The position numbers and the translations under genes were made by a program. Positions 1-31,500 of a DNA stretch of 42,241 nucleotides are shown piece after piece. The stretch covers positions 1 to 42,241 of the forward strand of contig JAGVGS010000126.1 of NCBI GenBank assembly GCA_020057015.1, in the 5' to 3' direction. The first letter of the stretch is position 1. The number at the start of each line of letters is the position of its first letter. The notes beneath the pieces are model-generated. The model ran no database searches. It was not told where the DNA came from and saw only the letters and a program-made list of their open reading frames with translations. Source of the stretch: Candidatus Omnitrophota bacterium (lineage in GTDB: Bacteria; Omnitrophota; Gorgyraeia; Aquiviventales; Aquiviventaceae).

Positions 1-1254
1 CACGCAGTGGGCGGACAGGATGGCTACAAATTCACCCCGGGCCAGCTCAATGCCCCGGTTAAGGGCCCGACCATAGCTAAACTCGGCGTCGGAAATTGAA
101 AGCACAGTGCAACCAAGGGCCTGCGCGATGTGGACTGTCCCATCAGTACTCTCATTGTCGACTACAATAATTTCAATACGGCCTACACCGCGTTGAGCCT
201 GAATAGCGCGCACCGATGATCTCAACCACTGCGCTTCATTCTTGCTGCGCACGATTACCGATACGCTGACGGGTGCTTGATCCGACACCCTCGGTGACAC
301 CGCGCTTCCCCACTCCAAATGCCCGAAGGTGAGCGGCTGTCCTTCTATAAGTTCGTAGCGTAGCGTGCAGCTGCTCAACCGGCTCGCCAGATCGGCCGAG
401 ACACCCTCCGTCCCCTCCCGAAATGCCACAGCATCGGTCGTCACCAGGTCTCCAGGCTGTAGAGGTCGAGCGGCTACCACAGTCGGTTGGGTTTGCTCGA
501 TTCGATCAAGCTCGTCTGGCGTTGCCGATGAGGTGGTCTGACCCGTCACGTACAGCAAGCGGCTCGCGTTGTTGACGTCACGTCGCACACTCAATAACCG
601 TTGCAGCGACGGCGCCTGTCCAGAAGCGCAATGGACTTTGAGCACCACGGAGGAGACGCCAAGGCAGATGGCGGAGCGAACATCCTCGATGCGATCGATA
701 TCGCAGAGATAACTCAACGGCCAACCCCATTGCTTGAACCGGTGGATATGCGCGAGCATCTCTTCGCGCATCAAGGACATCGCGGGGGATTCAAGAATGA
801 GGCTCCATACCGGGAGCATCAGCCGTACCATCGCTGCGACGTCGTGATCGGTTATGGACGTCACCGTGATCAAGCATGGTCGTATCGTGGGAACAGAAGC
901 CGTGCCCCATTGAGCACCCTTGGATAATTCAGCATGGAGATAATACCCCATGGGATTGAATCGTTCGCAAGCAATCCATGTCTCCAGATCCACGGGGGCA
1001 GCTATCCATGGGAGCACGGCGGGCCAATGGCGCAGTACATTGGCGAGTTGCTCAAACGAAAGACCTGCCTGCGGCGAGGACGGCCCATGCACCGGAAGGA
1101 TCACGCCATCCCATGGTGGAGACACCGTCAGCATATCGTCCAACTGCACGCCGTCGATTATGTCAAAGTACCCAAACACAGTTGTCCCTACCTCGAACGC
1201 TGCACCTCGTGCGGAAGGAGCCGCCAACCGTTCATGGAGCACGTTAAGATTCAT
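1..1254 (-). CDS. Fusion protein, C-terminus cut by the window edge: degenerate NeuB-like barrel + SAF-like domain + family-2 glycosyltransferase (GT2)
   Basis: Absent from the supplied ORF track because it has no stop in the window. The ATG at 1254-1252 lies one nt after the TAA of the upstream NeuB gene, and the frame stays open for all 418 codons to nt 1 (1254 is a multiple of 3). Hand translation starts MNLNVLHERLAAPSARGAAFEV. YLCDIDRIEDVRSAICLGVSSVVLKVH aligns to the GYSDH...ALGAEVIEKH block of the NeuB paralogs here. RPLQPGDLVTTDAVAFREG is SAF-like. VSVIVRSKNEAQWLRSSVRAIQAQRGVGRIEIIVVDNESTDGT is a GT2 N-terminal signature. Confidence 0.8.
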   Translation of the reverse strand, partial: MNLNVLHERLAAPSARGAAFEVGTTVFGYFDIIDGVQLDDMLTVSPPWDGVILPVHGPSSPQAGLSFEQLANVLRHWPAVLPWIAAPVDLETWIACERFNPMGYYLHAELSKGAQWGTASVPTIRPCLITVTSITDHDVAAMVRLMLPVWSLILESPAMSLMREEMLAHIHRFKQWGWPLSYLCDIDRIEDVRSAICLGVSSVVLKVHCASGQAPSLQRLLSVRRDVNNASRLLYVTGQTTSSATPDELDRIEQTQPTVVAARPLQPGDLVTTDAVAFREGTEGVSADLASRLSSCTLRYELIEGQPLTFGHLEWGSAVSPRVSDQAPVSVSVIVRSKNEAQWLRSSVRAIQAQRGVGRIEIIVVDNESTDGTVHIAQALGCTVLSISDAEFSYGRALNRGIELARGEFVAILSAHCV

Positions 1255-1255
1255 T

Positions 1256-2317
1256 TTACTCCAACATGTCCAGCTGGATCACGGTATCGATGGAAATCCG
1301 TATCTTGGCCTTGCGATTTACCACACTGTGGAGCTGTTGAGGCGCTAAGCCGGTGCCGGGATTCTTAAAGACCAGCATGTCTCCGCTGATACGCTGCCCT
1401 GGTGCGATTTCTCGTTGCGAGACAATTGACACATGGTATTTCTTCCGGGTTGCGGTCTCTTGGGTAGACACGCTCTTATCGCCGTTGCCAAGCGCGCGTG
1501 TGGTGTCTTGAATCGCTTTGACCATTATCGTAAATTCCGCCGGCGTTAGCGATAGTTTGTGGTCGAAGCCCACCATATCGTGATCGAGCGTGAAATGGCG
1601 CTCGACAGCTACCGCACCCAACGCTACTGCTGTTAATGTGGGCCCGTAGCCAAGCTCGTGTCCCGAGTAGCCCACGGGAACTCCATAGCGGCTGCGCAAC
1701 ACGGGGATGAGCGACAGGTTCGACGCTTCGACGGGTTGCGGATAGGCAGAGACGCAATGCATCAAGATCAGTGGTGTCTTAGATCGCATAAACACGTCCA
1801 CGGCCTCATCCAGTTCCTGCCACGTGCACATTCCCGTCGACATCATGACTGGCTTTTGTGTTCCGGAAACACATTCCAATAGTGGCACGTTAGTCACACT
1901 GTGGCTCGCGATCTTGTATGCGGAGACGCCAAGTCGTTCCAAAAATTCCACCGACGGAATATCGAACGGCGTCGCGAGGAATCGCACGCCAAGGGCCTTA
2001 CTGGCCTGCTGTAATTGCACGTAGTTGTCCCATCCGAATTCCAGATGCTCTCGAATCTGCCGATACGTACTGCCAAATGTCGGAAACCGCCCATCGGCAG
2101 CATCGAGCACTGAGTTGATCGCTAATCCGTCCACATCCCGCTTCTGGAATTTCACGATCAGGGCACCAGCTTTCACAGCCGCCTCAATAAGATTCAGGGC
2201 CAACCCAAGATCTCCATTGTGGTTGAGACCAATCTCAGCAATAGGAACGCATGGATGCCCTGGCCCGAGAGAAAGCCCAAGGAATGTTACGGCAGCCGGC
2301 AGGGGGAGAGTCGTCAT
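1256..2317 (-). CDS. NeuB-family nonulosonic (sialic/legionaminic/pseudaminic-type) acid synthase, full length with SAF domain
   Basis: 353-aa ORF. It carries the IAEIGLNHNGDL motif, the GYSGHE and VERHFTLD metal-site blocks, and a C-terminal SAF-like VSQREIAPGQRISGDMLVFKNPGTG. ATGA start/stop overlap with the upstream gene at 2314-2317. Confidence 0.9.
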   Translation of the reverse strand: MTTLPLPAAVTFLGLSLGPGHPCVPIAEIGLNHNGDLGLALNLIEAAVKAGALIVKFQKRDVDGLAINSVLDAADGRFPTFGSTYRQIREHLEFGWDNYVQLQQASKALGVRFLATPFDIPSVEFLERLGVSAYKIASHSVTNVPLLECVSGTQKPVMMSTGMCTWQELDEAVDVFMRSKTPLILMHCVSAYPQPVEASNLSLIPVLRSRYGVPVGYSGHELGYGPTLTAVALGAVAVERHFTLDHDMVGFDHKLSLTPAEFTIMVKAIQDTTRALGNGDKSVSTQETATRKKYHVSIVSQREIAPGQRISGDMLVFKNPGTGLAPQQLHSVVNRKAKIRISIDTVIQLDMLE

Positions 2318-3057
2318 GAGCGCTCGGCGTTCTGTGTTGAATTGGAGGAGATTATCTCAAGGAACCGTGGCGCCAGCAATTCGGCGAGCTGCCATCCCTT
2401 CAGATCATGGATGCAAACCGGCGCAAAAACATCATCAATTGGAATAACGCCTAATCGCTTCCCATAGAGGCTTCTTCCAAGGATGACTTCACGTTTTGCC
2501 ATCGACATGAGTCCAAAGAGCTCTCGATACACAGTCTGCTTATGCGACTTTGCGGTTTCACTACCGTATGTCACAAGATATGGCGCTTGATCGGGATCCA
2601 ACATCCAATGAGGGTGCCGCTCAGGCAACACAGCTATCGCTGAATCGAGCTCTCGAGAGAGCACTGTCTCGATAAATGAGTCAATCAGACCTCTCGAGCG
2701 AAAGGGATAGGTAACGAACAACACGAGAATCCATTCGGGCAGGTACTCTTCATGCGCCCCAAGCCATTCGACCGCATGATGCAACACATGGGGCGCAGAA
2801 GCCTCCGGATTAGCCAATGCCGCAGGACGGATAAACGGAACATCGAAGCCAGCCTCTTGACAAAGCGTGGCAACATGCTCGCTATCCGTTGAAACGACTG
2901 CACGCTCCACGTACCTGGACTCCGCCACCGCACGCTGCGTATACGACACTAATGGACGCTGGGCGAGCTGAGGACGCTGCCCATTAGAGAACTCATGGTC
3001 CGCTCCTGAAATAGGGATTACCGCAGCGATTCGAGGTCGATTGTTGACGGGCCTCAT
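2314..3057 (-). CDS. Divergent acylneuraminate cytidylyltransferase (NeuA-family) paralog lacking the canonical CTP-binding loop
   Basis: 247 aa. VVSTDSEHVATLCQEAGFDVPFIRPAALA is paralogous to IVSTDSEEIATVSRAVGAQVPFLRPAELA of the neighbouring gene. The N-terminal loop reads IPISGADHEFSNGQRPQL instead of IPARGGSKSIPRKNL. ATGA overlap at 3054-3057. Confidence 0.7.
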   Translation of the reverse strand: MRPVNNRPRIAAVIPISGADHEFSNGQRPQLAQRPLVSYTQRAVAESRYVERAVVSTDSEHVATLCQEAGFDVPFIRPAALANPEASAPHVLHHAVEWLGAHEEYLPEWILVLFVTYPFRSRGLIDSFIETVLSRELDSAIAVLPERHPHWMLDPDQAPYLVTYGSETAKSHKQTVYRELFGLMSMAKREVILGRSLYGKRLGVIPIDDVFAPVCIHDLKGWQLAELLAPRFLEIISSNSTQNAERS

Positions 3058-3791
3058 GAGGTCACCATGCCAGCCGTTGCGCCTGCTGCAGCGTGGTGGC
3101 GTAAGATCGATTCTGCAAGGAACACATCATGCACCTCATCGATATTGACCGAGCGTTCTACGGGCATGACATAGGCGCGGCAGTCACGTCCAGTGAAGGA
3201 GTTATCCTCTAAGAGTACCGATCGTTTCGTGAGGTAGAGCGCGCCGTTGCGGATGTACACAGGGGGCAGCTGTTGCCGTGGACGCATATTCTCCTCATCT
3301 TGATCCACATAATTCACGAGTCGATTGCCATCCACAATGCGCTTCATCCGCAACGGATGGTGACCTCCCACCTCAACAACACTGATCACCGCATCGGCCA
3401 GTGTCGAGATGAGCAGGTCAATTGCAGCATCGATATCTGCGGCTGACCGAAATGGGCATGTCGGCTGCAGCATCACCGCGATGTCGTATGGCCTACCATC
3501 CATTCGCTCAAGCGCTCGCAGCGCGTGTTGCATAACAGGAAGGGATAGCACGGTATCCGCGGCCAGCTCAGCCGGCCTAAGAAACGGCACCTGGGCTCCT
3601 ACCGCTCGACTCACTGTTGCGATTTCCTCGCTATCTGTTGACACAATCCAGCGGTCCAGACGGGCAGATCGCTTGGCCGCTTCAATGGTGTAGGCAATCA
3701 AGGGCTTTCCCGCCAGCGGGACAAGATTTTTCCGCGGGATCGACTTCGACCCTCCCCGCGCAGGAATGACTCCAAGAACCGTCGGTGGCAT
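3054..3791 (-). CDS. Acylneuraminate (CMP-nonulosonic acid) cytidylyltransferase, canonical NeuA type
   Basis: VLGVIPARGGSKSIPRKNLVPLAGKPLIAYTI signature. I prefer the ATG at 3791 (MPPTVLG), which has GAGGTGA 5 nt upstream, over the track GTG at 3800. Confidence 0.9.
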   Translation of the reverse strand: MPPTVLGVIPARGGSKSIPRKNLVPLAGKPLIAYTIEAAKRSARLDRWIVSTDSEEIATVSRAVGAQVPFLRPAELAADTVLSLPVMQHALRALERMDGRPYDIAVMLQPTCPFRSAADIDAAIDLLISTLADAVISVVEVGGHHPLRMKRIVDGNRLVNYVDQDEENMRPRQQLPPVYIRNGALYLTKRSVLLEDNSFTGRDCRAYVMPVERSVNIDEVHDVFLAESILRHHAAAGATAGMVTS

Positions 3792-3812
3792 GCGTGTCAC
3801 CTCGGATTGCGC

Positions 3813-4832
3813 TCAATAACCTCGTGTAATATCAACAACATTGACGAGGGGTTCATTGCGTAGATAGCGCCTCACATTTTCCGCCATCAGCGAATACTCG
3901 CCTTCCCAATACCGTTGGCTCAACCCCGCGATGTGAGGAGTCAAGATGACGTTAGAAAGTCGCCACAGTGGAGAGTCGGCCGGCAGTGGCTCATGCGCAA
4001 AAACATCCAGCCCTGCCCCCGCAATGGTCCGCCGCGTTAAAGCATCAACCAGATCAGCTTCCTTCACAGTTTCTCCACGACCCACATTAATAAAGAAGGC
4101 CTGCGGCTTCATCTTGTTGAACACGGCAGCGTGAAACACCTCTTTAGTGCTCGAAGTGAGGGGAAGAAGATTGACGACATAATCCGCCTCCTGAACCGCC
4201 TGACCAAGCTGCTCCAGCGTGTAAAGACGGTCAACCCAAGGCGGGGATGGAGAAGCAAGACTTCGCTTGATCGCCACGACACGCATCCCAAGTGCTTCGC
4301 AGATATTACTGAATCGGCGGCCGACTTCTCCCAATCCGACAATCAAACAGGTTTCTCCCTCTAGGTCATGGATCTGGTCGAAGTGCCGATCCATATTTTC
4401 CCGGTCAAGGCGTCCCTCTGCCCGAAGCTGCCAACACGACTGGAACCCTCGCGCGAGCGCACAGAGAAAGGCAAGAATCGTGGCAACCATGGGCGCCACC
4501 ATCACCCCTTTACTGTTGGTGACGATAATGCCTCGTTCCAATACCGCCTGGCCCAATGCCCGATCCACTCCAACAGAGCCAAAATGAATCCATCGCAGCG
4601 AGGGAAGTCTCGCAATGAGACTTGGAGTAATACGGTTGCCCCAATATACTTCGATGGCCTCTGCGGATACCTGGCTTTCGCGACCCGCATTGAACTCAAC
4701 GACCGCAACACCTGGGAAACCCTGCTGCAACTGATGGAGCATCTGCTTAGGCACATGGTAAAGCTGCAGAGGCAAAAATAGATCGCAACCAATCGTTAAG
4801 CGCCGCGAGGTTCCAACTGTCGCGTAACTCAT
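3813..4832 (-). CDS. D-isomer-specific 2-hydroxyacid dehydrogenase, NAD-binding
   Basis: GLGEVGRRFSNICEALGMRVVAIKR Rossmann motif, plus NVGRGE, GAGLDVFAHEPLP and ILTPHIAG motifs. Start moved to the ATG at 4832 (MSYATVG), which removes the 53-nt overlap with the upstream gene that ends at 4840. Confidence 0.85.
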   Translation of the reverse strand: MSYATVGTSRRLTIGCDLFLPLQLYHVPKQMLHQLQQGFPGVAVVEFNAGRESQVSAEAIEVYWGNRITPSLIARLPSLRWIHFGSVGVDRALGQAVLERGIIVTNSKGVMVAPMVATILAFLCALARGFQSCWQLRAEGRLDRENMDRHFDQIHDLEGETCLIVGLGEVGRRFSNICEALGMRVVAIKRSLASPSPPWVDRLYTLEQLGQAVQEADYVVNLLPLTSSTKEVFHAAVFNKMKPQAFFINVGRGETVKEADLVDALTRRTIAGAGLDVFAHEPLPADSPLWRLSNVILTPHIAGLSQRYWEGEYSLMAENVRRYLRNEPLVNVVDITRGY

Positions 4833-4839
4833 AACGTGT

Positions 4840-5997
4840 TCAGGCCCGTACCGTTGCCGGCAACCGATATCCGCTGTGACGGACAAAAGCATAGCGCTCT
4901 TTCATATCATTCGTCACCTGCACCCCGAGACCATCCGTGTCAGGCAGGATCAGTTCACCAGCACGAATCGTGGGAGGGCATACGAACATTTCAGTACTGA
5001 TCTGCAACGGAACCCGAGGCAACTCGAGGTATGCGATCGAAGGCATCGCACAGGCAAGATGAGCATTGGCAGCAAAAGCGATCGCGCTCCCCCAGACATG
5101 CAGTGCAACCGAAACACCTGACGCCTCGGCCAGATCGACGATTGCCTGTCCTGCGCTCAATCCGCCGCAATAGGTCACATCCGGCTGAAGAATATCCACA
5201 GCTGGAACGCGCAGAATGGCTTGAAACTCGTCGGCCCCATTAAGTGCTTCCCCGCTCGCAATTGGGATTGTGGAGGCACAATGGACGGCGATCAACCCCT
5301 CAAGATCATCTGGACTCACCGGCTCCTCGAGCCACCGAAGCCCAAACGACTGCAGATCACGAATCCGTTCCAAGGCCACCTTAGCATCCCATGGAGGGAT
5401 GATGGTTCCCATAATGGCATCAACCATCAGTTCCCGGTTATGCCCCAACGTTCTTCGTGCAGCAGCCACTCGCTCCAAATCGTGCTCCCACGATTGGTAA
5501 CCCACCCGCATCTTATAGTTAACAAACCCTTCTTCGAGAGCCGCTTGTATATCGGCCTCGATCTCGTCAGGCTTCCACTGTGCCGATCCCCCGCTAGCGT
5601 AGACCTTCACCGGACCCCGCCACGCATCACGCATGAGTCGATGAACCGGTTGTCGAAGCGCCTTGCCCGTGATGTCCCAGAGAGCAATGTTGATCGCACC
5701 GGCGACACTCTTGATGAGGCCGCTTCTCCCAACAAACGGCACCTGTGTGAGTCGCTGGGTAGTCTGATCTGGCTCTAAAGGGTTCGCCCCTAAAAGGAAT
5801 TCGCGGAGAAACGCCGTGGTCGGCGTCACCAACTCTGGAGCATATACGCCAGCATAGGTCTCACCGAACCCTACAAGACCCGCATCAGTATGGACTTCAA
5901 CGATGCCGATACTTTTCACGCCGAGTGGTTGCCCAAACACGTGTCCGTTGCCGTAGGGCGACGACAAGGCATACCCGTGGACATCGGTGATCTTCAT
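4840..5997 (-). CDS. Enolase-superfamily enzyme (mandelate racemase/muconate lactonizing family; probable sugar-acid dehydratase)
   Basis: 385 aa. N-terminal capping domain MKITDVHGYAL...GFGETY, and barrel motifs KMRVGY, LMVDA, WLEEP and DILQPDVTYCGG. ATGA overlap at 5994-5997. Confidence 0.85.
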   Translation of the reverse strand: MKITDVHGYALSSPYGNGHVFGQPLGVKSIGIVEVHTDAGLVGFGETYAGVYAPELVTPTTAFLREFLLGANPLEPDQTTQRLTQVPFVGRSGLIKSVAGAINIALWDITGKALRQPVHRLMRDAWRGPVKVYASGGSAQWKPDEIEADIQAALEEGFVNYKMRVGYQSWEHDLERVAAARRTLGHNRELMVDAIMGTIIPPWDAKVALERIRDLQSFGLRWLEEPVSPDDLEGLIAVHCASTIPIASGEALNGADEFQAILRVPAVDILQPDVTYCGGLSAGQAIVDLAEASGVSVALHVWGSAIAFAANAHLACAMPSIAYLELPRVPLQISTEMFVCPPTIRAGELILPDTDGLGVQVTNDMKERYAFVRHSGYRLPATVRA

Positions 5998-10314: not shown

Positions 10315-10322
10315 GGGATTGG

Positions 10323-12263: not shown

Positions 12264-12266
12264 CGT

Positions 12267-14090: not shown

Positions 14091-15676
14091 GACCGCCTCT
14101 CGAGCGTCGTCGCGCGTGGCATCTTTCGAATCACTGAGGACACTTCGTCAAGAACTGTCTCCTCACGCAGTTGCGCCGACTCATAATCACCACGCAAGCA
14201 GAACGCCCGGACGAACGCATTGGTCTTGGGCTCATGCGCCCGAGCCTCGAGTTGCTCGCGCAATCCGGACGGATGAGCCGGATCCACGTCGACCCAAACA
14301 CAGCGCTCGCGAATGGCCGCCGCCCCGTGCTCTGTAAAATTCCGCAGCCCGATGTGGAAATAGACGACTGGCTTGTCTGTCGCCATGGCGATACATGATG
14401 CCCCAGAAATGATGTCGAAGACAAACACGTCGGCTTGATCCAGACAGTTCTCCAGCCAGCCGGTCAGCACTCGACCGGTGTTTCTGGAAGCAAGCGCCGG
14501 ATGGCAGCGCTCCTTTGGATGCCGCTTGAGAATAAGGTTGGGAAACGCCTCAAAGAGCGCCTCCTGCCACCTGAAGTAAGCTTGGTCGGCCCACACGTGG
14601 AAGGGTCCATATCGCTGTTGGCCGTAGAACTGACTCGGAACATACATGAACGTCTTGCCTTCTAGATTCCCAAGCGTCTTGATCGGCGCGCCCGTGTGTT
14701 GCGCGCGGATGAAATTCGAATCGCTGCATACATAGCGCGGCGCGTCATAAAGAGGCCTTCGGTATTGGGCGTTATCAGGCACGTGACGGCCAGCTTCACC
14801 GTAACCGATGAACACATTGGGATACGTTCGCTCGCCATAACCAAACACGGGTTCGTCATGGGCGGATTCAATGCCATCTCCATGAGACACGCTCACGACA
14901 GGCACCTGATGGTAGCGTGCGAGGGCTGCCATGAACCGGTACTCGAGTGCCAAGAGCGTCCCGCTCAGCACAACGTCATATCGGAAGGGGCCAGGTAGAC
15001 CGTCGGAGGACCGCGCGAACACGTGCTGGCGCACCAGCTCCGCAGGCGTGCGTGGATCCCCTGGAAGCTCCAGCATATCCCACAGCTTCAGCACGCACAT
15101 CTGCAACTCATTCAACTGCGCATCCCGGTCAGGAATTGGAATCCTGGTTAGTGTGCGATAGTCAGCCCATAACCCCGCTGCCGTGAATCCACGGCTCAAG
15201 AGCTTTGGGCAAACGCCGGGGCCTTTCACCCAAATCCGCTTCGCGCCTCGAAACAAATGGCCTGCCCTGATCATGTCGCCGGTTGAAAGCATGGTCCGTT
15301 TATATTCCGAGAGCTTCCAGCGGATGCCGTGCCGGTCCATCGCCACGCGGAAATCCTTCCGATCTAGCGCGATGCCGTCTAGGAGATCGCGGTAGCTGGT
15401 ATATGGGAAGGAGGTGAGTGCGGGCGGCAGCATATCGGCTGGTGGCGCGTACGGACCTTGGAGCTCGTTCCATAACAAGATGTAACCGGTCAAAATCCGC
15501 ATGAGGTCGTGGAAGAAGATCGCCGTGACGTTGAGGTATGGCGCGGCGTGCGACTCGCACCGTCGAAACGCGTCCAGCAGCGCCTCGTAGGCCACCAGGC
15601 ACTGCGCGTTGTCGCGCTCGATGGAGGCGTTCCCGACGCCCTCGACGGTCTTGGATCCAATTACCACGCGGTCCAT
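14087..15676 (-). CDS. Second, more diverged TagF/SpsB-like GT-B transferase
   Basis: Shows the same ordered motifs as the 5994-8135 protein: VSVSHGDGIES, TFMYVPSQFYGQQR, LILKRHPKE and ADVFVFDIISGASCIAMATDKPVVYFH. The start is uncertain: ATG 15676, GTG 15667 (GGAGG 9 nt upstream), or the track start 15712. Confidence 0.55.
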   Translation of the reverse strand: MDRVVIGSKTVEGVGNASIERDNAQCLVAYEALLDAFRRCESHAAPYLNVTAIFFHDLMRILTGYILLWNELQGPYAPPADMLPPALTSFPYTSYRDLLDGIALDRKDFRVAMDRHGIRWKLSEYKRTMLSTGDMIRAGHLFRGAKRIWVKGPGVCPKLLSRGFTAAGLWADYRTLTRIPIPDRDAQLNELQMCVLKLWDMLELPGDPRTPAELVRQHVFARSSDGLPGPFRYDVVLSGTLLALEYRFMAALARYHQVPVVSVSHGDGIESAHDEPVFGYGERTYPNVFIGYGEAGRHVPDNAQYRRPLYDAPRYVCSDSNFIRAQHTGAPIKTLGNLEGKTFMYVPSQFYGQQRYGPFHVWADQAYFRWQEALFEAFPNLILKRHPKERCHPALASRNTGRVLTGWLENCLDQADVFVFDIISGASCIAMATDKPVVYFHIGLRNFTEHGAAAIRERCVWVDVDPAHPSGLREQLEARAHEPKTNAFVRAFCLRGDYESAQLREETVLDEVSSVIRKMPRATTLERRS

Positions 15677-16518
15677 CCTCCATCTACGATCATGTTGGTG
15701 CCGGTTACCCACTGCGATGCGTCGGACACGAGGTACAGTACAGCGCTGCCTAAATCATCCACGGTCGCCATGCGCTTGAGCATTGTCCGATAGGTATAGT
15801 TCTCCACGAACTCCGGCGCCTGATTATTGTAGACCCCGCCCGGTGAAAGACAATTGACCCGGATGTTCTTGCCCTGCCAGTACGAGGCCAGATAGCGCGT
15901 GAAGTTGATCAGGCCGCTCTTCGTCGTCGCGTAGGCGATGCTGGAGTTGATCTTGGAATTGCCGTAAATCCGTTGGTCACAGGCCACCACACCGTAGACT
16001 GAGCCGATATTGAGAATGACTCCGCTGCCCTGCTTCACCATCTGACGGCCCACAGCCTGACAACAGAGGAAAGCACCGGTTAGGTTTACGTCCAAGTTGG
16101 CCTGCCATACCTCCAGCGGGAACTCCTCGAACTCGCAAAGGCTGCCACTGAACACTGTCAACTGCTGGGCAGCCGCGTTGTTGATGAGCACGTCGATGCG
16201 GCCGTAGCGCTTGACGACCGACGCCACCGTCTCGGCAACCTGCGGCTTCTTGCTGATATCTACCCCAAAGCCCATCGGCTTGGTCTGGAACCGGTCGCCA
16301 AGGCCGCGCGCCAACGACTCACAGACAGCGGCATCAAGGTCGAAGAGCACGACGTTCGCGCCGACCTCGCTGAGGACCTCGCTGTAATAGCGTCCAAGTC
16401 GTCCGGCTCCGCCCGTCAGGATGACCGTGCGACCCTTCATGTCATACCACCGACGTAATCGTTCCAAGCGATCGGCTGCGTAGGTAGCGACTGCCGTTGG
16501 CAATTCATGCGACGCCAT
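15661..16518 (-). CDS. Short-chain dehydrogenase/reductase (SDR)
   Basis: VILTGGAGRLG cofactor motif and catalytic YATTK (YxxxK). Start re-called to ATG 16518 (MASHEL) because AAGGAG lies 8 nt upstream. The track start 16542 would overlap the upstream gene by 38 nt. Confidence 0.85.
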   Translation of the reverse strand: MASHELPTAVATYAADRLERLRRWYDMKGRTVILTGGAGRLGRYYSEVLSEVGANVVLFDLDAAVCESLARGLGDRFQTKPMGFGVDISKKPQVAETVASVVKRYGRIDVLINNAAAQQLTVFSGSLCEFEEFPLEVWQANLDVNLTGAFLCCQAVGRQMVKQGSGVILNIGSVYGVVACDQRIYGNSKINSSIAYATTKSGLINFTRYLASYWQGKNIRVNCLSPGGVYNNQAPEFVENYTYRTMLKRMATVDDLGSAVLYLVSDASQWVTGTNMIVDGGWTAW

Positions 16519-17572
16519 GGCGCATACTCCTTCTTGGTTCATGGCTTGGGAGAGGGGGCTCCGGCTGTAAGTGAGTTGCTACGTGCACACGCCGTCCAGT
16601 TGCTGAGGATTTCAGAGCAGCCAACCCAGCCCTCAACACATGGAGGCCGGTGGCGAGATCAGTCAGCGGCAGTTCACGACGCTCCGCCACTCGAATTAGG
16701 TGCCGAAGTTCATCGAGGTAGGTCTGATTGATATCGTAGTTGCATAACACCACAAGATCCTCCCACTCTTTGCGCGCAGGCCGGTAGATGCGGACGCGGT
16801 CTCCGAGCAGCTCCCACTCGATTGTCCCCTCGCGCCCCGCAACCTGGAGACTGCGGCGGTAGGTGCGCTGCACGAAATCGAGCTCAATTTCCGAGAGCAT
16901 GCCGCCGGCATGTTCCAGCACCATCATCGCCACGTCTTCGACGTCGAGGCCGAAGGCCCGGCTGCGCGCGACCGCCGTGACCGAGGCGATCGGCCCAAAC
17001 AGCCAGAACGCGTGGTCGAGCTCATGGATGCTGGTCAGCACCACGCCGCCGCCGAGATCATTGCGCGCCTCGTAGCGCGTCTTGAAATCCGCCCACGCAT
17101 GGCAGGTGGGTAAGTATTCGCCGAACTGCATGCGGCTATACAAGGCCTCGCCGATGTCGCCCCGCTGCAGCGCTTGGCGGATCGCAACCAGGGCAGGATG
17201 GAATCGGAGGTTGTGGCCCAACAGCACCTGCGCTCCGGTTTCCTGCGCGCGCTGCATCAACAACTCAAGCCCGTCTGTTCGATGCGCCAATGGAACCTCA
17301 ACCAGGACCGCCGCGCCGATCTCCACGGCCCGGGTCAGCGGCTCCATATGCAGCGCCGTCGGCGTACCGATGATCACGATGGCCGGGTTGCGAGCGAACG
17401 CTTCGTCAGGATCGGTAATAGTCGTGAACTCATCACCCAGTAGCGTCCGAGGCAGCCGCGCGTTGCGGCGCAACACAGAAATATTCCGGTGGCCCATCGC
17501 GAGGAGATTGCGCACATGCCGCTCACCAATCGAACCTAGCCCAATCACTAAGACTTCCCCATCAAACGGCAT
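16505..17572 (-). CDS. Gfo/Idh/MocA-family NAD(P)-dependent oxidoreductase
   Basis: VLVIGLGSIGERHVRNLLAMGH N-terminal Rossmann motif. The ATG at 17572 overlaps the upstream TGA by 1 nt (TGATG). Confidence 0.85.
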   Translation of the reverse strand: MPFDGEVLVIGLGSIGERHVRNLLAMGHRNISVLRRNARLPRTLLGDEFTTITDPDEAFARNPAIVIIGTPTALHMEPLTRAVEIGAAVLVEVPLAHRTDGLELLMQRAQETGAQVLLGHNLRFHPALVAIRQALQRGDIGEALYSRMQFGEYLPTCHAWADFKTRYEARNDLGGGVVLTSIHELDHAFWLFGPIASVTAVARSRAFGLDVEDVAMMVLEHAGGMLSEIELDFVQRTYRRSLQVAGREGTIEWELLGDRVRIYRPARKEWEDLVVLCNYDINQTYLDELRHLIRVAERRELPLTDLATGLHVLRAGLAALKSSATGRRVHVATHLQPEPPLPSHEPRRSMRHGVA

Positions 17573-18555
17573 CAATACTCCCGTACGCGAAACGTGGCAA
17601 AGAGGATGTCGCCAGCACAGACCCGATCCAGCAGGCGCAAGAGACCGATGTATCCGGCCCGCAGCCAGACCGAGGAGGCAACGGCGCGGGCGATCGACCG
17701 CTCCAGCTGCACCAATCGCGTCGGCAACAGCGGCACCTTGCCGCGAATCGTCATCGTGCCCGTCGCCCAGCGGCCAAGCTCGAGCCCCACCCGCTGACCG
17801 AGCGCACGCAGCGTCCGGATATCATAGTGATATAGATGCCCCGGCTCCAGGAACATATCCCAGTCATGCCGGCTCAGCCGCGACATCCAACGGTTCAAAC
17901 TGGCCACATTCGGCACGCCGATCAGCAGCTCTCCGGACGGTGCGAGGCAGCGGACAGCTTCACTGAGCACCGCGGTCGGATCCGGCAGATGCTCGACAAC
18001 ACCAAGCAGCGCGATCACGGCGAACCGCTCATCCGAAGGCAGTTCGCCGAGCATCCCGACGCGCACATCCAGACCAAGTTCGGCGCGCGCAAACGCAACT
18101 GCTCGAGAATCCAGATCGATGCCGGTCACGCGATATCCTCGCAGTTGCGCCCGGAACAGAAACTGCCCGGCGCCGCATCCGACGTCCAGTAGGCGAGCCG
18201 GAGGCTGCACACGCAGCAACGACAGCTCATCACAACTGGATGCCGGGCGCGTGCCGGCTAACCGCACCTTGCTGGCCGAGGCCTCGAAGCACACAGAGGC
18301 GGCGGTGTAGAGCTCATCCGGTGAGCGGCCATCTGAGACGGCCACGGTTCGCAGCAGTCCACAGGTTCGACACTGCTCGATGCGCACCTGCACGCGCAGT
18401 CCGCGGTCGAGCCCATCCGGAACCGTGTCGAGCGCAGAATCGACGCTCCGGCAGAGACGAAACCCCGCCTCCGCCGCTTGGCAGACCGGGCAGACCGCGA
18501 CGATGGCCGCCTGCGCTCCGTCCGGCTGACGATCAGTCGTCAGCGTTGCCGTCAT
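17572..18555 (-). CDS. Class I SAM-dependent methyltransferase with N-terminal Cys4 zinc-ribbon
   Basis: CPVCQ...CRTCG pair, followed by motif I LLDVGCGAGQFL. Start re-called to ATG 18555 (MTATLTTD), which forms an ATGA overlap with the stop of the upstream fusion gene. The track start 18699 would overlap that gene by 148 nt. Confidence 0.8.
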   Translation of the reverse strand: MTATLTTDRQPDGAQAAIVAVCPVCQAAEAGFRLCRSVDSALDTVPDGLDRGLRVQVRIEQCRTCGLLRTVAVSDGRSPDELYTAASVCFEASASKVRLAGTRPASSCDELSLLRVQPPARLLDVGCGAGQFLFRAQLRGYRVTGIDLDSRAVAFARAELGLDVRVGMLGELPSDERFAVIALLGVVEHLPDPTAVLSEAVRCLAPSGELLIGVPNVASLNRWMSRLSRHDWDMFLEPGHLYHYDIRTLRALGQRVGLELGRWATGTMTIRGKVPLLPTRLVQLERSIARAVASSVWLRAGYIGLLRLLDRVCAGDILFATFRVREY

Positions 18556-20342
18556 GGAGTGTACACCAAACTCGTATCGACTTGCTGACGTTGCAACGCC
18601 CAGAGCGTCTCCCGATGCACCCAGCTCGGATTCATCTCTGTCAACGTCTTCAAGATGGTTTCGGTAGAGATGTAGAACGCCGAGCGACCCTCGTGGCACC
18701 GACGAGCAACTTCCCGCATCAAGTCGTAGTCTTCCTGGTAGTCTAGCGTCAGGCGGAACCGTTCCCCACGGTGCTCCGGGTCAGCCTGGAGGAGGCTGTT
18801 ACGGCAAATCCAGTCCGAATCCAGATACCATGTCAGGTGTTCGGTCTGCCGGCGGTTGGTAATCGCCCGGTGCAGGCGTCGCAGCGTACGCACATCAATG
18901 ACTTCACAGTCCATACCGATGGGCAAACCGGTCGTGCGCGTGAAATCCAGGCTGTGCTCCAGATGGTGGGCCAGCGCCCGCTCAATGTACTCACAGCTGA
19001 CAAACTGGTCATCTCCAGTCACCCGCACCAAGACGTCCCACCCGAACGCGTCGGCTGTTTGCACCATCCGGCCCATGACGTCTTCCGGCTCACCGCGGAA
19101 ACACGGCACACCGATCTCACCCGCCAGCGTTTCCAGCGCGTCATCCTCCGAACGCACGGTCGTCGCCAGCGCCACCTGTCCGATCCGCCCAGGATACGAG
19201 ATCAACCGCTTGAGCAAATATCCCAACGTCGTGTAGCGGTCATAGAACGGCAGCAGCGCCTTGCGCGGCAGGCGCGACGAAGCCAGGCGCGCGTTGCAGA
19301 ACACGCCGATCCGCTGTGTAAAAAGCGCTTGGGTGAGATGCGTTCCGGGGGCCAGCGGTGCGGCAGGCTGGCGACCAATGGCACGGAGTGCCCGCATGGA
19401 TCCGTGGTAGCTCCCATCGCGGACCAGTGCCAGCTCCTGCGCACTGATTGGCTGTCCAGCATCGAGTGGCTGGACCGCAATGACGGTTCGTTTCATCTCC
19501 TCTTGATACCCTCGCTCCGGCGGTAAGAAGATGCGCTGATCCTGGCCTACCGCGGCCACCGCCTGCTCAATCCCACGGACCATGAGGGCGAACTCCTGCG
19601 GCTCCAACGCGCTGTAGTAGTCCTCTCGACGCTCGGCGCGGTGCAGGGTGACGTGCTTTTCAATCACTTGAGCACCTAGGCTCACCGCAAGCGAGGGAAC
19701 CTGAATCGCTGCAGGATCATCGCCGGCCAGATGATCGGAGAGCCCAATGCGTGCTCTGGGGAAAATTCTTGCCAGTTTGGGAATTTTCCAGAGCTCCAAC
19801 TCATTAAGATGGATGCCCTGAGCCGGCGGTCCACCCGGCGCATCCGCCAACTTCGGGAATGACTGATACCCATGCAATACGATGGTCTCGTGCTCCGGTC
19901 CTAGGCGATCAAAAAGGTCAAAAAGATCGATGAGCGGGGTCCCGCCTGTCCCAACGGCAATGGGTAGCCCCAGCTCACGGACGCCGTCAAGTACCACCGG
20001 GTTATCAATATCGGCCGAGTGGATCTTCACCGCCTGCACCTGATCTTTTGCCGAGCAAACGACGCGCAAGCTGAATGGTCCGGAGACCTCTACCCAGACG
20101 CCCAACCTCATCTCGCTACAAGCGGTAATGATGTCGTTCCAGACATCCGCGGAAAAGGCGATGCGCTTGAAGTAGGCGTAGTCCGGATGGTCACGTGAAA
20201 CGACCTCGTCGGGATCGAAGATTTGGAACTTCACCGCGGATGCTCCAGCCTCACGCATCGCGTGCGCCAAACGCAGAAGATAGTCTCGATCGCCCTCATG
20301 AATGCAGGCAAATTCTGCTACGCACTGCACCGCTCGACTCAT
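18552..20342 (-). CDS. Tri-domain fusion: NeuB-like synthase barrel + SAF domain + SpsF/PseF-type cytidylyltransferase
   Basis: 596 aa. N-terminus: AEFACIHEGDRDYLLRLAHAMREAGASAVKFQIF, GLSDHL, VIEKHVTL. Middle: VIAVQPLDAGQPISAQELALVRDG (SAF-like). C-terminus: IGVFCNARLASSRLPRKALLPF, plus LVRVTGDDQF (cytidylyltransferase). Confidence 0.85.
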   Translation of the reverse strand: MSRAVQCVAEFACIHEGDRDYLLRLAHAMREAGASAVKFQIFDPDEVVSRDHPDYAYFKRIAFSADVWNDIITACSEMRLGVWVEVSGPFSLRVVCSAKDQVQAVKIHSADIDNPVVLDGVRELGLPIAVGTGGTPLIDLFDLFDRLGPEHETIVLHGYQSFPKLADAPGGPPAQGIHLNELELWKIPKLARIFPRARIGLSDHLAGDDPAAIQVPSLAVSLGAQVIEKHVTLHRAERREDYYSALEPQEFALMVRGIEQAVAAVGQDQRIFLPPERGYQEEMKRTVIAVQPLDAGQPISAQELALVRDGSYHGSMRALRAIGRQPAAPLAPGTHLTQALFTQRIGVFCNARLASSRLPRKALLPFYDRYTTLGYLLKRLISYPGRIGQVALATTVRSEDDALETLAGEIGVPCFRGEPEDVMGRMVQTADAFGWDVLVRVTGDDQFVSCEYIERALAHHLEHSLDFTRTTGLPIGMDCEVIDVRTLRRLHRAITNRRQTEHLTWYLDSDWICRNSLLQADPEHRGERFRLTLDYQEDYDLMREVARRCHEGRSAFYISTETILKTLTEMNPSWVHRETLWALQRQQVDTSLVYTP

Positions 20343-20508
20343 GAGGCCTCACGCCTGTTAGGCAATGGTTGCTGCCATGAGTATTCTTGGCTCATGATCG
20401 ACGAATCCCTCGCCACATATAGGAACCATATACGTTTTGCCTAGTTAGAAACGCCCTGTTTCTCGAACGAATCGCTCTGGAAAATGCGATGCAACACTGC
20501 TGCATACG

Positions 20509-21318
20509 CTATTTCGGAAATCGTGAGCGGACGAACGTGGTGATGGAGCGTTCTGATGGAGTCGGCTCCTTGACTGGGCTTCCAAGCAGCATTTCTACCT
20601 CTCGGATCATTCGTACCATTTCTCGTAGTTCCTCGGGCACCACCGATAACACATGATCCGTACCCGGCAACGACTTGTCGAGCGTGAAATGCTTCTCAAT
20701 AACCTCGGCTCCAAGGGCAACCGCCACAACGGGAGCTAATACCCCAATCGTGTGATCAGAGTAACCAACACGGTATTGAGGAAATGCCGCCTTCAAGGTT
20801 TGAATGACACTCAAATTGGCCTGCTCTGGCGGGCAGGGATATTGCGTCGTACACTGCATGAGGTATAGATCCTTCACGTTAGGTAAATGCGCCACCGCCT
20901 CTTGAACTTCATGTAGGGCTGCCATACCAGTCGAAAGAAACACCGTTGGCACGTACCGATTATTGAGGTAGTCGAGCAGCCTGAAATTTAACATCTCGGA
21001 TGAGGCCACTTTTATCTTGCGCAGACCGAGCCCCTCAACTAAGAATCGCGCTCGTTCCAAGCTGAACGCACTACTCAAAAACTCCACGCCCTGTGCCTCC
21101 GCGACGGCCTTCAACTCGTAATGTAACTCATCTGGCACATGAACCTTCGTAAACCATTCCCGCTCAGGGTCGTCCTCGCCCACTTCAGATCCGAGGTAGG
21201 ATTGGAGCTTCACAATATCCGCGCCAGCCTCCGCCGCCTCCACAATCATTCGGCGGGCCAGTGTCCAATCACCGATGTGGTTTTCCCCGATCTCCGCAAT
21301 CACAATTGTCCGACCCAT
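20509..21318 (-). CDS. NeuB-family synthase barrel without SAF domain
   Basis: 269 aa. IVIAEIGENHIGDW, VGYSDHTIG, VIEKHFTLDKSLPGTDH. The protein ends at the linker where the SAF domain would begin. AGGAG lies 7 nt upstream of ATG 21318. Confidence 0.85.
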   Translation of the reverse strand: MGRTIVIAEIGENHIGDWTLARRMIVEAAEAGADIVKLQSYLGSEVGEDDPEREWFTKVHVPDELHYELKAVAEAQGVEFLSSAFSLERARFLVEGLGLRKIKVASSEMLNFRLLDYLNNRYVPTVFLSTGMAALHEVQEAVAHLPNVKDLYLMQCTTQYPCPPEQANLSVIQTLKAAFPQYRVGYSDHTIGVLAPVVAVALGAEVIEKHFTLDKSLPGTDHVLSVVPEELREMVRMIREVEMLLGSPVKEPTPSERSITTFVRSRFPK

Positions 21319-22853: not shown

Positions 22854-23089
22854 GCAATTTCGATGTGATGCACCGACCTCACTCGAGCTCCACACGTCTG
22901 ATACCGGTTGCTTATGCGGACACTGGAATCCGTCAAGACGATGAACGACAAAGAAGGTCACCGATATTACCGGCGACAAGCATGTTCATCAGCGGTGGGC
23001 TCATCAAACCGAGCGTAATGCGCATAGGCACAGCGGGCACCCGTTGAAACAACTCCGGGTAAACCTAATGATGCGCCTGACCCATAGCA

Positions 23090-23755: not shown

Positions 23756-23789
23756 GTGTGTCCCCCGCGCTTTACTGCTGAGGCTCTTC

Positions 23790-25364: not shown

Positions 25365-25506
25365 GGAACCTGCCTGCCTCCTGATATCTGGCTGAACCTG
25401 ACATCTTCACCCTTAGGAAGACTGCTATGCAACTCATCCTTGCGAGGTTCCCTTACCTCATCAGTACCCCTGACACGTACGGCTCTGCAGACGACCTCAC
25501 TCGAAT

Positions 25507-27467: not shown

Positions 27468-27506
27468 GTCCTGCATCCTCCCCCATCAGTGTTGTTCAGT
27501 TGCAAC

Positions 27507-29716: not shown

Positions 29717-29721
29717 CTGCG

Positions 29722-31380: not shown

Positions 31381-31419
31381 AGGAATAGTACAATATTTTA
31401 TTGCAACGAATAGAGGCTT

Positions 31420-31448: not shown

Positions 31449-31500
31449 GACTTTTTGTCCCAAGCTTTCCACCGGAGATCGCTCACTTATGGTGATATTT

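Follow-up and report, generated by a model that had tools for sequence, protein, structure and literature searches.

Why should a single bacterial locus encode four modules related to the synthase NeuB and three related to cytidylyltransferases? This question is raised by a stretch of DNA of 42,241 nucleotides (nt), referred to below as the window, which makes up the entire contig JAGVGS010000126.1 of a Candidatus Omnitrophota bacterium (assembly GCA_020057015.1) and whose end falls inside the first of its genes, g01. A preliminary description of the window had counted these modules and offered two explanations, namely that two or more ulosonic acids are made by a non-standard route, or that duplicated synthase folds have been recruited for new roles. 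The analysis reported here suggests that both are partly right at once. More than one ulosonic acid branch is plausible, because two pairs of synthase and cytidine monophosphate (CMP) transferase (g16 on its own and g02 together with g04), a third synthase (g17) and two front ends are encoded, and two of the duplicated folds (the g01 N-terminus and g03) appear to have been recruited, as they lost their catalytic residues yet are conserved and tied to family 2 glycosyltransferases (GT2). It is considered moderately probable that positions 1-37 kb constitute one co-transcribed surface-glycan locus, which joins two independent and recurrent cassettes for CMP-activated 3-deoxy-2-ulosonic sugars (cassettes A and B) and in which the dead copies serve as non-catalytic modules. 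This reading builds on observed domain identities, residue conservation and loss, synteny and gene fusions.

Gene calling identified about 35 closely packed genes, all on the minus strand and commonly joined by 4-nt overlaps of start and stop codons; the cluster is hence co-directional, as had been stated, and the called genes agree with the coordinates given earlier. Scans with Pfam and NCBIfam revealed 1-37 kb to be a single large sugar locus, which next to the NeuB and cytidylyltransferase genes encodes two nucleoside diphosphate (NDP)-sugar 6-dehydrogenases, four dehydratases/epimerases of the short-chain dehydrogenase/reductase (SDR) type, two DegT aminotransferases, a carbamoyltransferase, a B12-dependent radical S-adenosylmethionine (SAM) enzyme, a PIG-L deacetylase, four SAM methyltransferases, an adenylate-forming ligase, an AsnB-type amidotransferase, an MsbA/PglK-like ATP-binding cassette (ABC) exporter and two GT2 enzymes. 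Dehydratase and aminotransferase form two pairs (g29/g28 and g22/g23).

Three of the four synthase modules were found to be intact, each with the architecture proposed for it before. The canonical synthase g02 passes both Pfam NeuB (PF03102, cut-off 22.1 bits) and SAF and keeps its catalytic residues; g16 consists of a NeuB barrel, a SAF domain identified by alignment and a fused cytidylyltransferase (CTP_transf_3, PF02348, cut-off 22.6 bits); and g17 is recognised by Pfam as NeuB alone (scores in Table 1). Alignments to solved structures revealed that all three keep the equivalents of Glu25, Lys53, Lys129, His215, Glu234, His236 and Asp247 in the numbering of Neisseria meningitidis NeuB (NmNeuB), and the catalytic and metal-binding residues are invariant in 48 members of the fusion family, which share 26-65% identity, as well as in 32 members of the g02 family. 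In the 48-member alignment the g16 residues E10, K38, K106, H204, E228, H230 and D241 are invariant and Q40 and R308 near-invariant, and the alignment of g17 with 6NCS, 1VLI, 8H2C and 2WQP identified the equivalents of E, K, Q, K, S, E, H, E, H and D as kept. The SAF segment of g16 aligns with NmNeuB up to residue 327, the Arg314 equivalent included, and Pfam calls SAF in close relatives of g16. The 166-nt spacer behind g17 encodes no SAF remnant, and the syntenic g17 homologs are likewise short (268-274 amino acids (aa) in the related loci L001, L004 and P0017; related loci were examined over +/-7-10 kb each).

The position at which these proteins part is that of Arg314. In NmNeuB this arginine contacts the N-acetyl group of the sugar and is reportedly essential for catalysis, and structures of the R314A and R314K variants, which were among the Foldseek matches to the g01 model described below, mark it as a target of mutagenesis. 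Its equivalent in g16 is R308, which is at least 90% conserved, g17 has no SAF domain to carry it, g01 possesses a Glu and the g01 relatives mostly an Ala, and throughout the 32-member alignment of the g02 family the position is occupied by an invariant Asn (Asn319). In that alignment Ser138-His139, replacing Gly-Glu134 of NmNeuB, and a family-specific insert are invariant, too. The g02 clade therefore appears to have an altered sugar pocket, and the aldose substrate of g02 probably differs, because the SAF arginine of canonical NeuB is an invariant Asn here.

Divergence of the synthases is also seen over their whole length, as the barrels of g02, g16 and g17 share only 26-37% pairwise identity. 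A neighbour-joining tree with 200 bootstraps was calculated from barrel sequences only, which included the references NmNeuB (2WQP), Campylobacter jejuni PseI (8H2C), Bacillus subtilis SpsE (1VLI) and Leptospira 6NCS, all rebuilt from alignments, together with Legionella-type NeuBs and family members. The g16 fusion clade and the g02 clade were each recovered in 200/200 replicates, each excluding every reference and lying outside the Legionella-type NeuB clade (legionaminic acid (Leg)-type NeuBs themselves grouped in 96/200), so that the paralogs do not all fall into one characterised clade, a possibility raised beforehand. For g17, grouping with the syntenic short NeuBs of L001 and L004 was obtained in 106/200 replicates, and no synthase of the window clustered with PseI. 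In line with this, neither the NeuB equivalog TIGR03569 (cut-off 399.65 bits; g02 300.3, g17 262.0, g16 116.6) nor the PseI equivalog TIGR03586 (cut-off 340.25 bits; g02 240.6, g17 193.5, g16 94.8) was reached. The top match of both g17 and g02 in the PDB is the short Leptospira NeuB 6NCS, and the best sequence matches of g16 are SpsE (1VLI) for its NeuB half and the 250-aa cytidylyltransferase 6OEW, which we take to be SpsF-like, for its CTP_transf_3 half. The idea that the fusion is simply SpsE plus SpsF was weakened, with the B. subtilis SpsE barrel placed outside the fusion clade.

The fourth synthase module, the N-terminus of g01, escapes routine detection. Pfam returned no NeuB match to it even at E<=1 and gave GT2 and a sub-threshold SAF (E 0.003) only, and neither phmmer against the PDB nor a word-indexed homolog search returned anything. 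An exhaustive single-sequence phmmer search of 1.8 billion representatives identified 15 weak relatives of g01; 14 of the 16 sequences aligned (g01 included) possess SAF and four are recognisable NeuB proteins. When g01 and its three nearest relatives were compared with a NeuB+SAF alignment using hhalign, a probability of 99% was obtained (E 4.7e-18, 263 columns). An AlphaFold2 model derived from the 16-sequence alignment (predicted local distance difference test score 79.9) consists of eight beta/alpha repeats followed by a SAF-like domain, and its top 11 Foldseek matches in the PDB are all members of the NeuB family (E 1.7e-10 to 1e-8), generic TIM barrels following only from E 1e-5. Because the hhalign result, the modelled fold and the Foldseek ranking coincide, g01 is assigned as a degenerate NeuB with SAF fused to a GT2, as had been proposed. 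Its degeneracy is documented by the residues aligned with Lys129, His215, Glu234 and His236, which are Tyr, Asp, Val and Lys, and by the Glu25/Lys53 region, which fails to align with NeuB at all. Judged from these residues, the g01 N-terminus is a NeuB homolog in fold that cannot be a phosphoenolpyruvate (PEP)-condensing enzyme of the usual kind. Proteins of the g01 type share 31-35% identity, and conservation is high in their SAF segment; a full-length relative of 518 aa is encoded in L086, and in L087 the protein is split into a 310-aa SAF protein and a 224-aa GT2.

Of the three cytidylyltransferase modules counted before, all were recovered as CTP_transf_3 folds (g03, g04 and the g16 C-terminus), but g03 is devoid of the CTP-binding P-loop. 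Intact P-loops were identified in g04 ('PARGGSKSIPRKN'), whose upper coordinate is 3800, the previously given 3791 corresponding to an internal ATG, and in the C-terminus of g16 ('ARLASSRLPRKA'), where R352, S355, R357 and K361 are invariant in the 48-member family alignment. The g03 protein is 31% identical to g04 over 222 aa, i.e., over its full length, and possesses 'PISGADHEFSNGQRP' instead of the P-loop 'PARGGSKxxPxKN', 'VTY' instead of 'QPT' and 'IHD' instead of 'NID..D'. These replacement motifs are common to the homologs in L086 (55% identity) and L087 (47%), and g03 is a probable pseudoenzyme. The PseF equivalog (TIGR03584, cut-off 205.7 bits) is not reached by g04 (157.7 bits) or by g03 (56.8 bits).

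A synteny search for the block, which had been called for, revealed that two conserved cassettes recur across phyla. Cassette A (~14.1-27.5 kb) comprises the deacetylase, the short NeuB, the NeuB-CTP_transf_3 fusion, a methyltransferase, an oxidoreductase of the GFO/IDH/MocA type (GFO) and an SDR. The fusion family of g16 consists of more than 100 protein clusters, and g16-type fusions were found in metagenome-assembled genomes (MAGs) of Planctomycetia, Nitrospirae, Acidobacteriota, Desulfobacterota, Elusimicrobiota, Cloacimonadota, Pelagibacteraceae and archaea, in the cultivated Bacillus stercoris and in a Paenibacillus protein (P0096). In B. stercoris D7XPN1 (L015, 9974-11770) the 598-aa NeuB-CTP_transf_3 fusion is an orphan gene with an ammonium transporter, a PAP2 phosphatase, an M23 peptidase, a GNAT protein, a cardiolipin synthase, a MerR regulator and urease as neighbours and no nearby sugar genes; this bacterium would offer a genetically tractable host for product tests. 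The nearest relatives of g16 (60-65% identity; L001, L004 and the P0017 locus) share a neighbourhood like that of the window, which runs DegT, SDR, PIG-L deacetylase, (WbqC), (PseG-like or ~320-aa protein), short NeuB, (formyltransferase), fusion, methyltransferase, GFO/IDH/MocA, SDR and g12-like protein. Where these three loci have WbqC, the PseG-like gene and the formyltransferase, the window has a methyltransferase and the GT2 g18 instead, with g18 occupying the slot of the PseG-like gene. The trio g13-g15 recurs in L001 and L004 with conserved gene order and 54-77% identity, and in the P0017 locus its Pfam families appear in unchanged order. Synteny with L001 and L004 likewise extends to g20, g22 and g23, at 60-78% identity, and g12 homologs follow the SDR in both (47% and 24% identity, respectively). 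The GT2s located after the fusion in L006, L007, L009, L012, L021 and L063 are homologous to g18 and carry a dead CTP_transf_3-like domain. In a Cloacimonadota MAG (L016, 9992-13120) a single polypeptide of 1042 aa unites NeuB-SAF, an active CTP_transf_3, a type I GT2 and a dead CTP_transf_3-like domain, and this protein can be read as a Rosetta-stone link of g16, g18 and g03-type functions.

Cassette B (1-6 kb) combines a g02-type NeuB, an active and a dead CTP_transf_3, a GT2 with dead NeuB or dead CTP_transf_3 domain and 2-hydroxyacid enzymes. The g02 family is large, its members are 50-65% identical and Magnetococcales are among its carriers. In L086 a CTP_transf_3-2-Hacid_dh fusion is encoded together with a g03-like (55%) and a g02-like protein (65%), followed by the g01-like SAF+GT2 protein (35% over 408 aa); in L087/L088 a g03-like protein (47%), a CTP_transf_3-LarA-type fusion, a g02-like protein (60%), the stand-alone g01-type protein and its GT2 precede a classical NeuB-NeuC-CTP_transf_3 set. 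The counterpart of g05 is thus fused to an active CTP_transf_3 in L086 and also in L090, with a LarA-type domain in its place in L087. The coordinates of these fusions are 4224-6023 in L086 and 1787-3523 in L090 for the D-2-hydroxyacid dehydrogenase type and 8019-10004 in L087 for the LarA type (nickel-pincer 2-hydroxyacid racemase/epimerase), and the paper on the LarA superfamily (PMC11770544) mentions neither CTP_transf_3 fusions nor ulosonic substrates. In L089-L092 and L004 a g02-type or short NeuB adjoins a GT2 of 380-466 aa, with 2-Hacid_dh, Ldh_2 or MR_MLE enzymes and CTP_transf_3 close by, and an MR_MLE enzyme of the g06 type occurs together with a 2-hydroxyacid dehydrogenase (2-HADH) beside the g02-type or short NeuB in L004 and L091. 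The C-terminal domain of the 435-466-aa GT2s of L004, L089, L090 and L092 fits a dead CTP_transf_3 profile over an active one (E 1e-25 to 4e-10). Two GT2 subtypes can be distinguished by their motifs, type I (DDGS...LDxDD), to which g18 belongs, and type II (VDNxSxD...SAHC, without DxD), which is found in g01 and all GT2s of cassette B. Across lineages, one of the two dead folds, NeuB or NeuA, always occurs as the fusion partner or neighbour of a soluble GT2. Both cassettes recur across phyla and are widespread in public genomes, and they are read as evolutionarily independent.

As to the steps preceding condensation, the earlier statement that the window lacks an acetyltransferase and any NeuC/LegG/PseG-type enzyme was confirmed by two approaches: Pfam and NCBIfam scans identified no Hexapep, GNAT, Epimerase_2 or GT28 domain in any large open reading frame (ORF) of the window, and tblastn with PseG-like, NeuC, WbqC, formyltransferase, hexapeptide-transferase and PtmE-like queries from related loci gave no match in it. 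Neither branch is therefore complete on the contig, as N-acetyltransferase, nucleotide-sugar hydrolase and 2-epimerase are not encoded; the genes for acetyltransferase and hydrolase/epimerase may lie elsewhere in the genome, and as a hypothesis a GT2 could stand in for PseG/NeuC. An exact look-up of g02, made to reach DNA beyond nt 1, returned no record.

Considering all this, a working scheme can be suggested, in which substrates, the number of distinct sugars and the roles of the dead domains and GT2s are read from sequence and gene order. Cassette A would start from a nucleotide-linked amino sugar, formed by the dehydratase g22 and the aminotransferase g23 and de-N-acetylated by the PIG-L enzyme g20, whereby the B12-radical-SAM enzyme and SAM methyltransferases would contribute tailoring. 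The SAF-less g17, the synthase domain of g16 or both would condense the freed sugar with PEP, and the fused SpsF-type domain would activate the product with cytidine triphosphate (CTP). In gene order, the fusion is always followed by the PtmF/PtmA-like oxidoreductases and a methyltransferase. Cassette A would thereby resemble a diamino-nonulosonic acid (NulO) route of the Leg or pseudaminic acid (Pse) type with de-N-acetylation and methylation. Cassette B would employ its own synthase g02, accepting a probably different aldose, and its own active CMP-transferase g04, coupled to the alpha-hydroxyacid/alpha-carbon enzymes g05 and g06. The barrel and SAF of g01 as well as g03 were assigned putative roles as non-catalytic partner or ligand-binding modules: since NeuB and NeuA are dimeric enzymes, the dead copies could dock the GT2 onto the pair of synthase and CMP-transferase or onto an ulosonic acid ligand. 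The GT2 in turn may free the aldose from its nucleotide, thus supplying the step for which no PseG/NeuC gene is present, or may glycosylate or transfer the ulosonic acid.

Several observations weigh against this reading of two cassettes with non-catalytic modules. The Leg/Pse pathway is incomplete on the contig, with neither LegH/PseH nor LegG/NeuC/PseG encoded. In a cross-tabulation of 92 loci with flanks of +/-10 kb, g18-like GT2s and NeuC/PseG-like genes show no clear mutual exclusion (5/13 versus 13/29, fractions among loci with SpsF-type CTP_transf_3). The g01 SAF donating Arg314 in trans to g02 or g17 was ruled out, because the aligned residue is Glu in g01 and mostly Ala in its relatives. 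The tree is a crude, distance-based one, and of its five references only some are biochemically or genetically characterised, 6NCS not being among them. Finally, L001 possesses two NeuB domains and one CTP_transf_3 domain within +/-10 kb, which fits g17 and g16 operating in one pathway and not for two sugars. This last ratio would also be expected if the whole locus were a Leg/Pse cluster with paralog inflation, in which a single pathway leads to a single sugar, with g17, g16 and g02 as isoenzymes that are redundant or used under different conditions and with g04 and the g16 C-terminus as redundant activators; the PEP- and metal-binding residues kept by all three synthases, the PtmA/PtmF-like genes and the LegB/LegC-like front end would agree with it. 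Such a one-sugar locus is nevertheless judged distinctly improbable, given the low identity among the barrels, the separation of g16 and g02 into fully supported clades, the invariant substitutions of the g02 family at two substrate-pocket positions and the fact that each clade has its own conserved neighbourhood in distant phyla, which is unlike recent redundancy. Also unlikely, but to be given more weight, is that the product of cassette B is something other than a 5,7-diamino nonulosonic acid and that g02 condenses PEP with another aldehyde, e.g., a uronic or acid sugar supplied via the two NDP-sugar dehydrogenases, to give a new ulosonic or ulosaric acid, whose second alpha-hydroxy-acid centre would be remodelled, prior to its activation with CMP, by enzymes of the 2-hydroxyacid dehydrogenase, LarA or enolase-superfamily types. 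The Asn for Arg314 and Ser-His for Gly-Glu134 exchanges would suit such a substrate, as would the recurrent linkage or fusion of the active CTP_transf_3 to 2-Hacid_dh, LarA, Ldh_2 and MR_MLE and the lack of aminotransferase and acetyltransferase in cassette B of L086 and L090; moreover, CMP-activated ulosonic acids with elongated backbone and unassigned CMP-sugars were recently reported in Magnetospirillum, and Magnetococcales carry g02-type genes. On the other side, the argument is one from gene context, the EpaA/EpaB precedent discussed below demonstrates that a reductase-CTP_transf_3 fusion can simply epimerise an ordinary NulO, and g04 is most similar to PseF.

The remaining two alternatives concern the dead copies and the contig itself. 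That the g01 N-terminus and g03 are functionless, decaying pseudo-paralogs left by tandem duplication, a possibility already considered in the preliminary description, would account for the loss of catalytic residues and for the rarity of g01 relatives in the single-sequence search. It is regarded as very improbable, as both genes are intact ORFs translationally coupled to their neighbours, g03-type proteins share their replacement motifs across unrelated contigs, g01-type proteins combine a conserved SAF segment with a confidently predicted fold, and dead domains recur as stable GT2 fusions in many phyla. With 31-55% identity and invariant motifs of their own in distant lineages, the dead copies look conserved, not decaying. 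A chimera, in which metagenome assembly had merged two unrelated sugar clusters of separate organisms into one contig, could be suspected from the varying GC content (0.51-0.65 along the window) and from the singleton status, at 90% identity in a collection of 15 billion proteins, of all eight housekeeping or sugar proteins tested. Orientation and tight gene packing continue across the locus without a break, L004 has cassette A beside a short NeuB, a GT2 with dead CTP_transf_3, MR_MLE and 2-HADH on one contig in several samples, and L087 and L091-L092 likewise pair a g02-type module with a second NeuB set, all of which renders a chimera hardly credible.

Comparison with known systems places the two-cassette locus among, and partly apart from, documented NulO clusters. 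Like the legionaminic acid pathway of C. jejuni and Legionella (LegB/C/H/G/I/F with PtmA/PtmF/PtmE), the window encodes an NDP-sugar 4,6-dehydratase, DegT, a NeuB-family synthase and CTP_transf_3, and like Leg-type loci it has GFO/IDH/MocA and SDR genes of the PtmF/PtmA-like kind beside the activator. This pair is a hallmark of Leg-type loci, in which GFO-CTP_transf_3-SDR-NeuB is the usual order (PMC4481668). Unlike the Leg pathway, the window lacks LegH, LegG (NeuC) and the PtmE nucleotidyltransferase, synthase and activator are fused in g16, the g16 NeuB clade stands apart from the Legionella type and every equivalog score stays below its cut-off. The sps operon of B. subtilis (SpsC/D/E/F/G/M), responsible for legionaminic acid of the spore crust, encodes SpsE and SpsF, which act consecutively, and additionally the GT2 SpsA and the TagB-like SpsB, whose roles are unassigned (PMC7439481); compared with it, the window fuses synthase and activator in one polypeptide, adds a SAF-less NeuB and has no SpsD or SpsG homolog. 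In Leptospira interrogans a cluster with several aminotransferases, two NulO synthases and two CMP-NulO synthetases was read as making more than one NulO (PMC3438082). That cluster includes LegH and LegG homologs, its fusion is one of NeuB and phosphatase in place of NeuB and CTP_transf_3, and dead NeuB or NeuA paralogs or GT2 fusions were not described in it (PMC3438082); the Leptospira O-antigen families LIC13510 and LIC12162 are found in the window or in related loci.

For cassette B, the best precedent is given by the NulO conversion modules of Acinetobacter baumannii (AciABCD/E and EpaA/EpaB), where, beside a core NulO pathway, a redox enzyme is joined by linkage or fusion to an additional CTP_transf_3 (PMC5595891, PMC12053666). 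EpaA, a CTP_transf_3 with aldo-keto reductase, together with the SDR EpaB converts Pse into 8ePse (PMC12053666), and by analogy g04 with g05, the CTP_transf_3-2-HADH fusions and the CTP_transf_3-LarA fusion may be understood. In contrast to these modules, the partners in cassette B are of the D-2-hydroxyacid dehydrogenase, LarA and enolase-superfamily types, and cassette B brings along components that a conversion module can do without, namely its own synthase (g02), the dead paralogs and a GT2. A counterpart of cassette A is found in the Leg-type cluster of Ca. Kuenenia stuttgartiensis, in which a deacetylase and a formyltransferase are located between legB/legF/legC homologs and neuB/legF/legG, with two copies of legF, and for which CMP-NulOs with free amine, formyl group and +14 Da were detected (SugarBase preprint 10.64898/2026.04.20.719630). 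The cassette A relatives in L001, L004 and P0017 hold PIG-L, WbqC, formyltransferase and methyltransferase genes in the matching place; the window differs by lacking formyltransferase and LegG and by having the B12-radical-SAM enzyme, extra methyltransferases and a carbamoyltransferase, whereby the clusters were likened by gene content, not by homology.

Because the Leptospira and Acinetobacter systems and SpsE/SpsF of B. subtilis are documented, the count of four NeuB and three CTP_transf_3 modules does not by itself represent a new kind of locus. The earlier proposal of an undescribed pathway hence overstated the uniqueness of multiple synthases, the cassettes themselves being widespread, and the pathway as such stays a hypothesis. 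In a literature search, the NeuB-SAF-CTP_transf_3 fusion family, the g02-type clade with Asn for Arg314, conserved dead NeuB/NeuA paralogs fused to GT2 and the CTP_transf_3-2-HADH and CTP_transf_3-LarA fusions were not found described. These recurrent, unstudied gene sets probably make undescribed sugars or use undescribed enzyme partnerships. More tentatively, and with doubt prevailing, cassette B, with its Asn-bearing g02-type NeuB, its CMP-transferase tied to 2-hydroxyacid dehydrogenase, LarA or enolase-type enzymes and its 'SAH-type' GT2, is suggested to be an undescribed system whose CMP-activated 3-deoxy-2-ulosonic acid would be new and might be dicarboxylic or modified in its chain. The dead paralogs would serve as ligand-binding modules or as obligatory partners in heteromers and would assemble a complex of GT2, synthase and activator; if true, this would be a pseudoenzyme-organised metabolon, which is not known for any sialic-acid-like pathway.

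Sialic-acid-like sugars shape how hosts, phages and other microbes perceive bacterial surfaces, and knowledge of their biosynthesis rests on few model pathways, i.e., those of N-acetylneuraminic acid, Pse, Leg and a few epimers. Beyond these models, the present work identifies two large uncharacterised NeuB clades with conserved gene partners of their own, a widespread synthase-activator fusion, whose carriers range from SAR11 relatives to Bacillus, catalytically dead but conserved versions of both enzymes attached to glycosyltransferases and a recurring link between CMP activation and 2-hydroxyacid chemistry. The cassettes are candidate genes for the CMP-ulosonic acids fitting no known pathway that are now detected by mass spectrometry (SugarBase preprint), and they provide a testable case of pseudoenzymes organising a sugar pathway. 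Experiments are feasible, as the fusion is carried by the cultivable B. stercoris and is also represented by the Paenibacillus protein.

Table 1. Genes of the sugar locus with coordinates, strand, assignment and profile scores.
Gene	Coordinates	Strand	Assignment	Score
g01	1..1254	-	N-terminal ~320 aa NeuB-like (beta/alpha)8 barrel and SAF, GT2 from aa ~331; cut by contig end	
g02	1256..2317	-	NeuB barrel and SAF, intact	NeuB 251.7 bits; SAF 32.8 bits
g03	2314..3057	-	CTP_transf_3 paralog without CTP-binding P-loop	25.7 bits, N-terminal half only
g04	3054..3800	-	canonical NeuA/PseF-type CMP-ulosonic acid synthetase	CTP_transf_3 77.7 bits
g05	3813..4892	-	D-2-hydroxyacid dehydrogenase family	2-Hacid_dh_C 169 bits
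g06	4840..5997	-	enolase superfamily (MR/MLE), acid-sugar-dehydratase-like	MR_MLE_C 194.7 bits
g07	5994..8138	-	714-aa surface-carbohydrate protein	
g08-g11	8135..14090	-	MTS-type methyltransferase; PaaK-like adenylate-forming ligase; AsnB-like amidotransferase; ABC exporter with transmembrane and nucleotide-binding domains (TMD-NBD; MsbA/PglK/HepA-like)	
g12	14087..15712	-	conserved 541-aa protein, end of cassette A	
g13-g15	15661..18699	-	SDR (PtmA-like); GFO/IDH/MocA oxidoreductase (PtmF-like); SAM methyltransferase	
g16	18552..20342	-	fusion of NeuB barrel, SAF and SpsF-type cytidylyltransferase	NeuB 104.1 bits; CTP_transf_3 57.2 bits
g17	20509..21318	-	SAF-less NeuB barrel, full catalytic set	NeuB 233.4 bits
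g18	21337..22137	-	small soluble type I GT2 (DDGS...LDSDD)	
g19-g23	22062..27476	-	methyltransferase; PIG-L deacetylase; B12-binding radical SAM; SDR dehydratase/epimerase; DegT aminotransferase	
g24-g32	27884..37227	-	carbamoyltransferase; 128-aa protein; three further SDRs; LexA-type DNA-binding protein; second DegT; two NDP-sugar 6-dehydrogenases	

Among the further genes of the locus, g06 has talarate/galactarate and galactonate dehydratases as top NCBIfam matches, none reaching its cut-off, and the FlagModPtmA match within the g13-g15 trio (142.7 bits) also remains below cut-off. No match to g12 was obtained in Pfam, NCBIfam or, by sequence, the PDB. For g07, no PDB relative was detectable by sequence, and sub-cut-off matches point to TIGR04326 (the O_ant_LIC13510 family), TIGR04396 and the BFO_1060-family glycosyltransferase domain; on account of the weak matches to BFO_1060/TagB-like NulO-transferase families, g07 is a candidate CMP-NulO-dependent transferase, and together with the ABC exporter g11 it forms the candidate pair for transfer and export. 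The genes g08-g11 were provisionally assigned to tailoring and export. The PaaK/DVU_1553-like adenylate-forming ligase and the AsnB-type glutamine amidotransferase (8881-12263, minus strand) are located between cassettes A and B, and AsnB-like genes flank cassettes also in L006, L012, L016, L089 and the P0017 locus; ligase and AsnB could acylate one sugar or amidate its carboxyl group. Within cassette A, the B12-binding radical SAM gene (23790-25364, minus strand) lies between deacetylase and dehydratase and shows BchE-, PhpK- and C-methylase-like matches, all sub-cut-off; similar genes occur in L001, L007, L012, L034, L038, L063, L082 and L091. That a C-methylase of the B12-radical-SAM class extends the carbon backbone is pure conjecture.

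The block g24-g32 supplies and tailors nucleotide sugars. It includes a carbamoyltransferase of the NodU/CmcH type (27884-29716, minus strand, 610 aa), which suggests an O-carbamoylated sugar in the glycan, and the 128-aa protein next to it (29722-30108, minus strand) has no family match. Further along, a protein of 107 aa (g27; 31057-31380, minus strand) consists of a LexA-type winged-helix DNA-binding domain alone, without S24 peptidase domain, and may be a locus-specific regulator. A lone sigma-70-like promoter site (31448-31420) is located upstream of this gene, in a rare intergenic gap; an Rfam scan of the window returned no RNA families and a terminator scan no enrichment.

The GC content of the window is about 58%. 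The sugar locus lies for the most part at 0.51-0.60, being lowest at 24-26 kb, and the flanking chromosomal genes at 0.63-0.65, a dip that is typical of horizontally exchanged glycan loci. These flanking genes (37-42 kb) encode, according to the Pfam and NCBIfam scans, an LptD-like outer-membrane protein, a transaldolase and a GGDEF protein, and by virtue of the LptD-like protein they represent the chromosomal context of a Gram-negative organism. The LptD-like ORF (37305-40844, minus strand) is unusually long with 1179 aa, its LptD domains begin only at about aa 445 and, with the first start codon taken as its beginning, it shares 460 nt with the transaldolase ORF (40385-41092, minus strand); its true start probably lies downstream.

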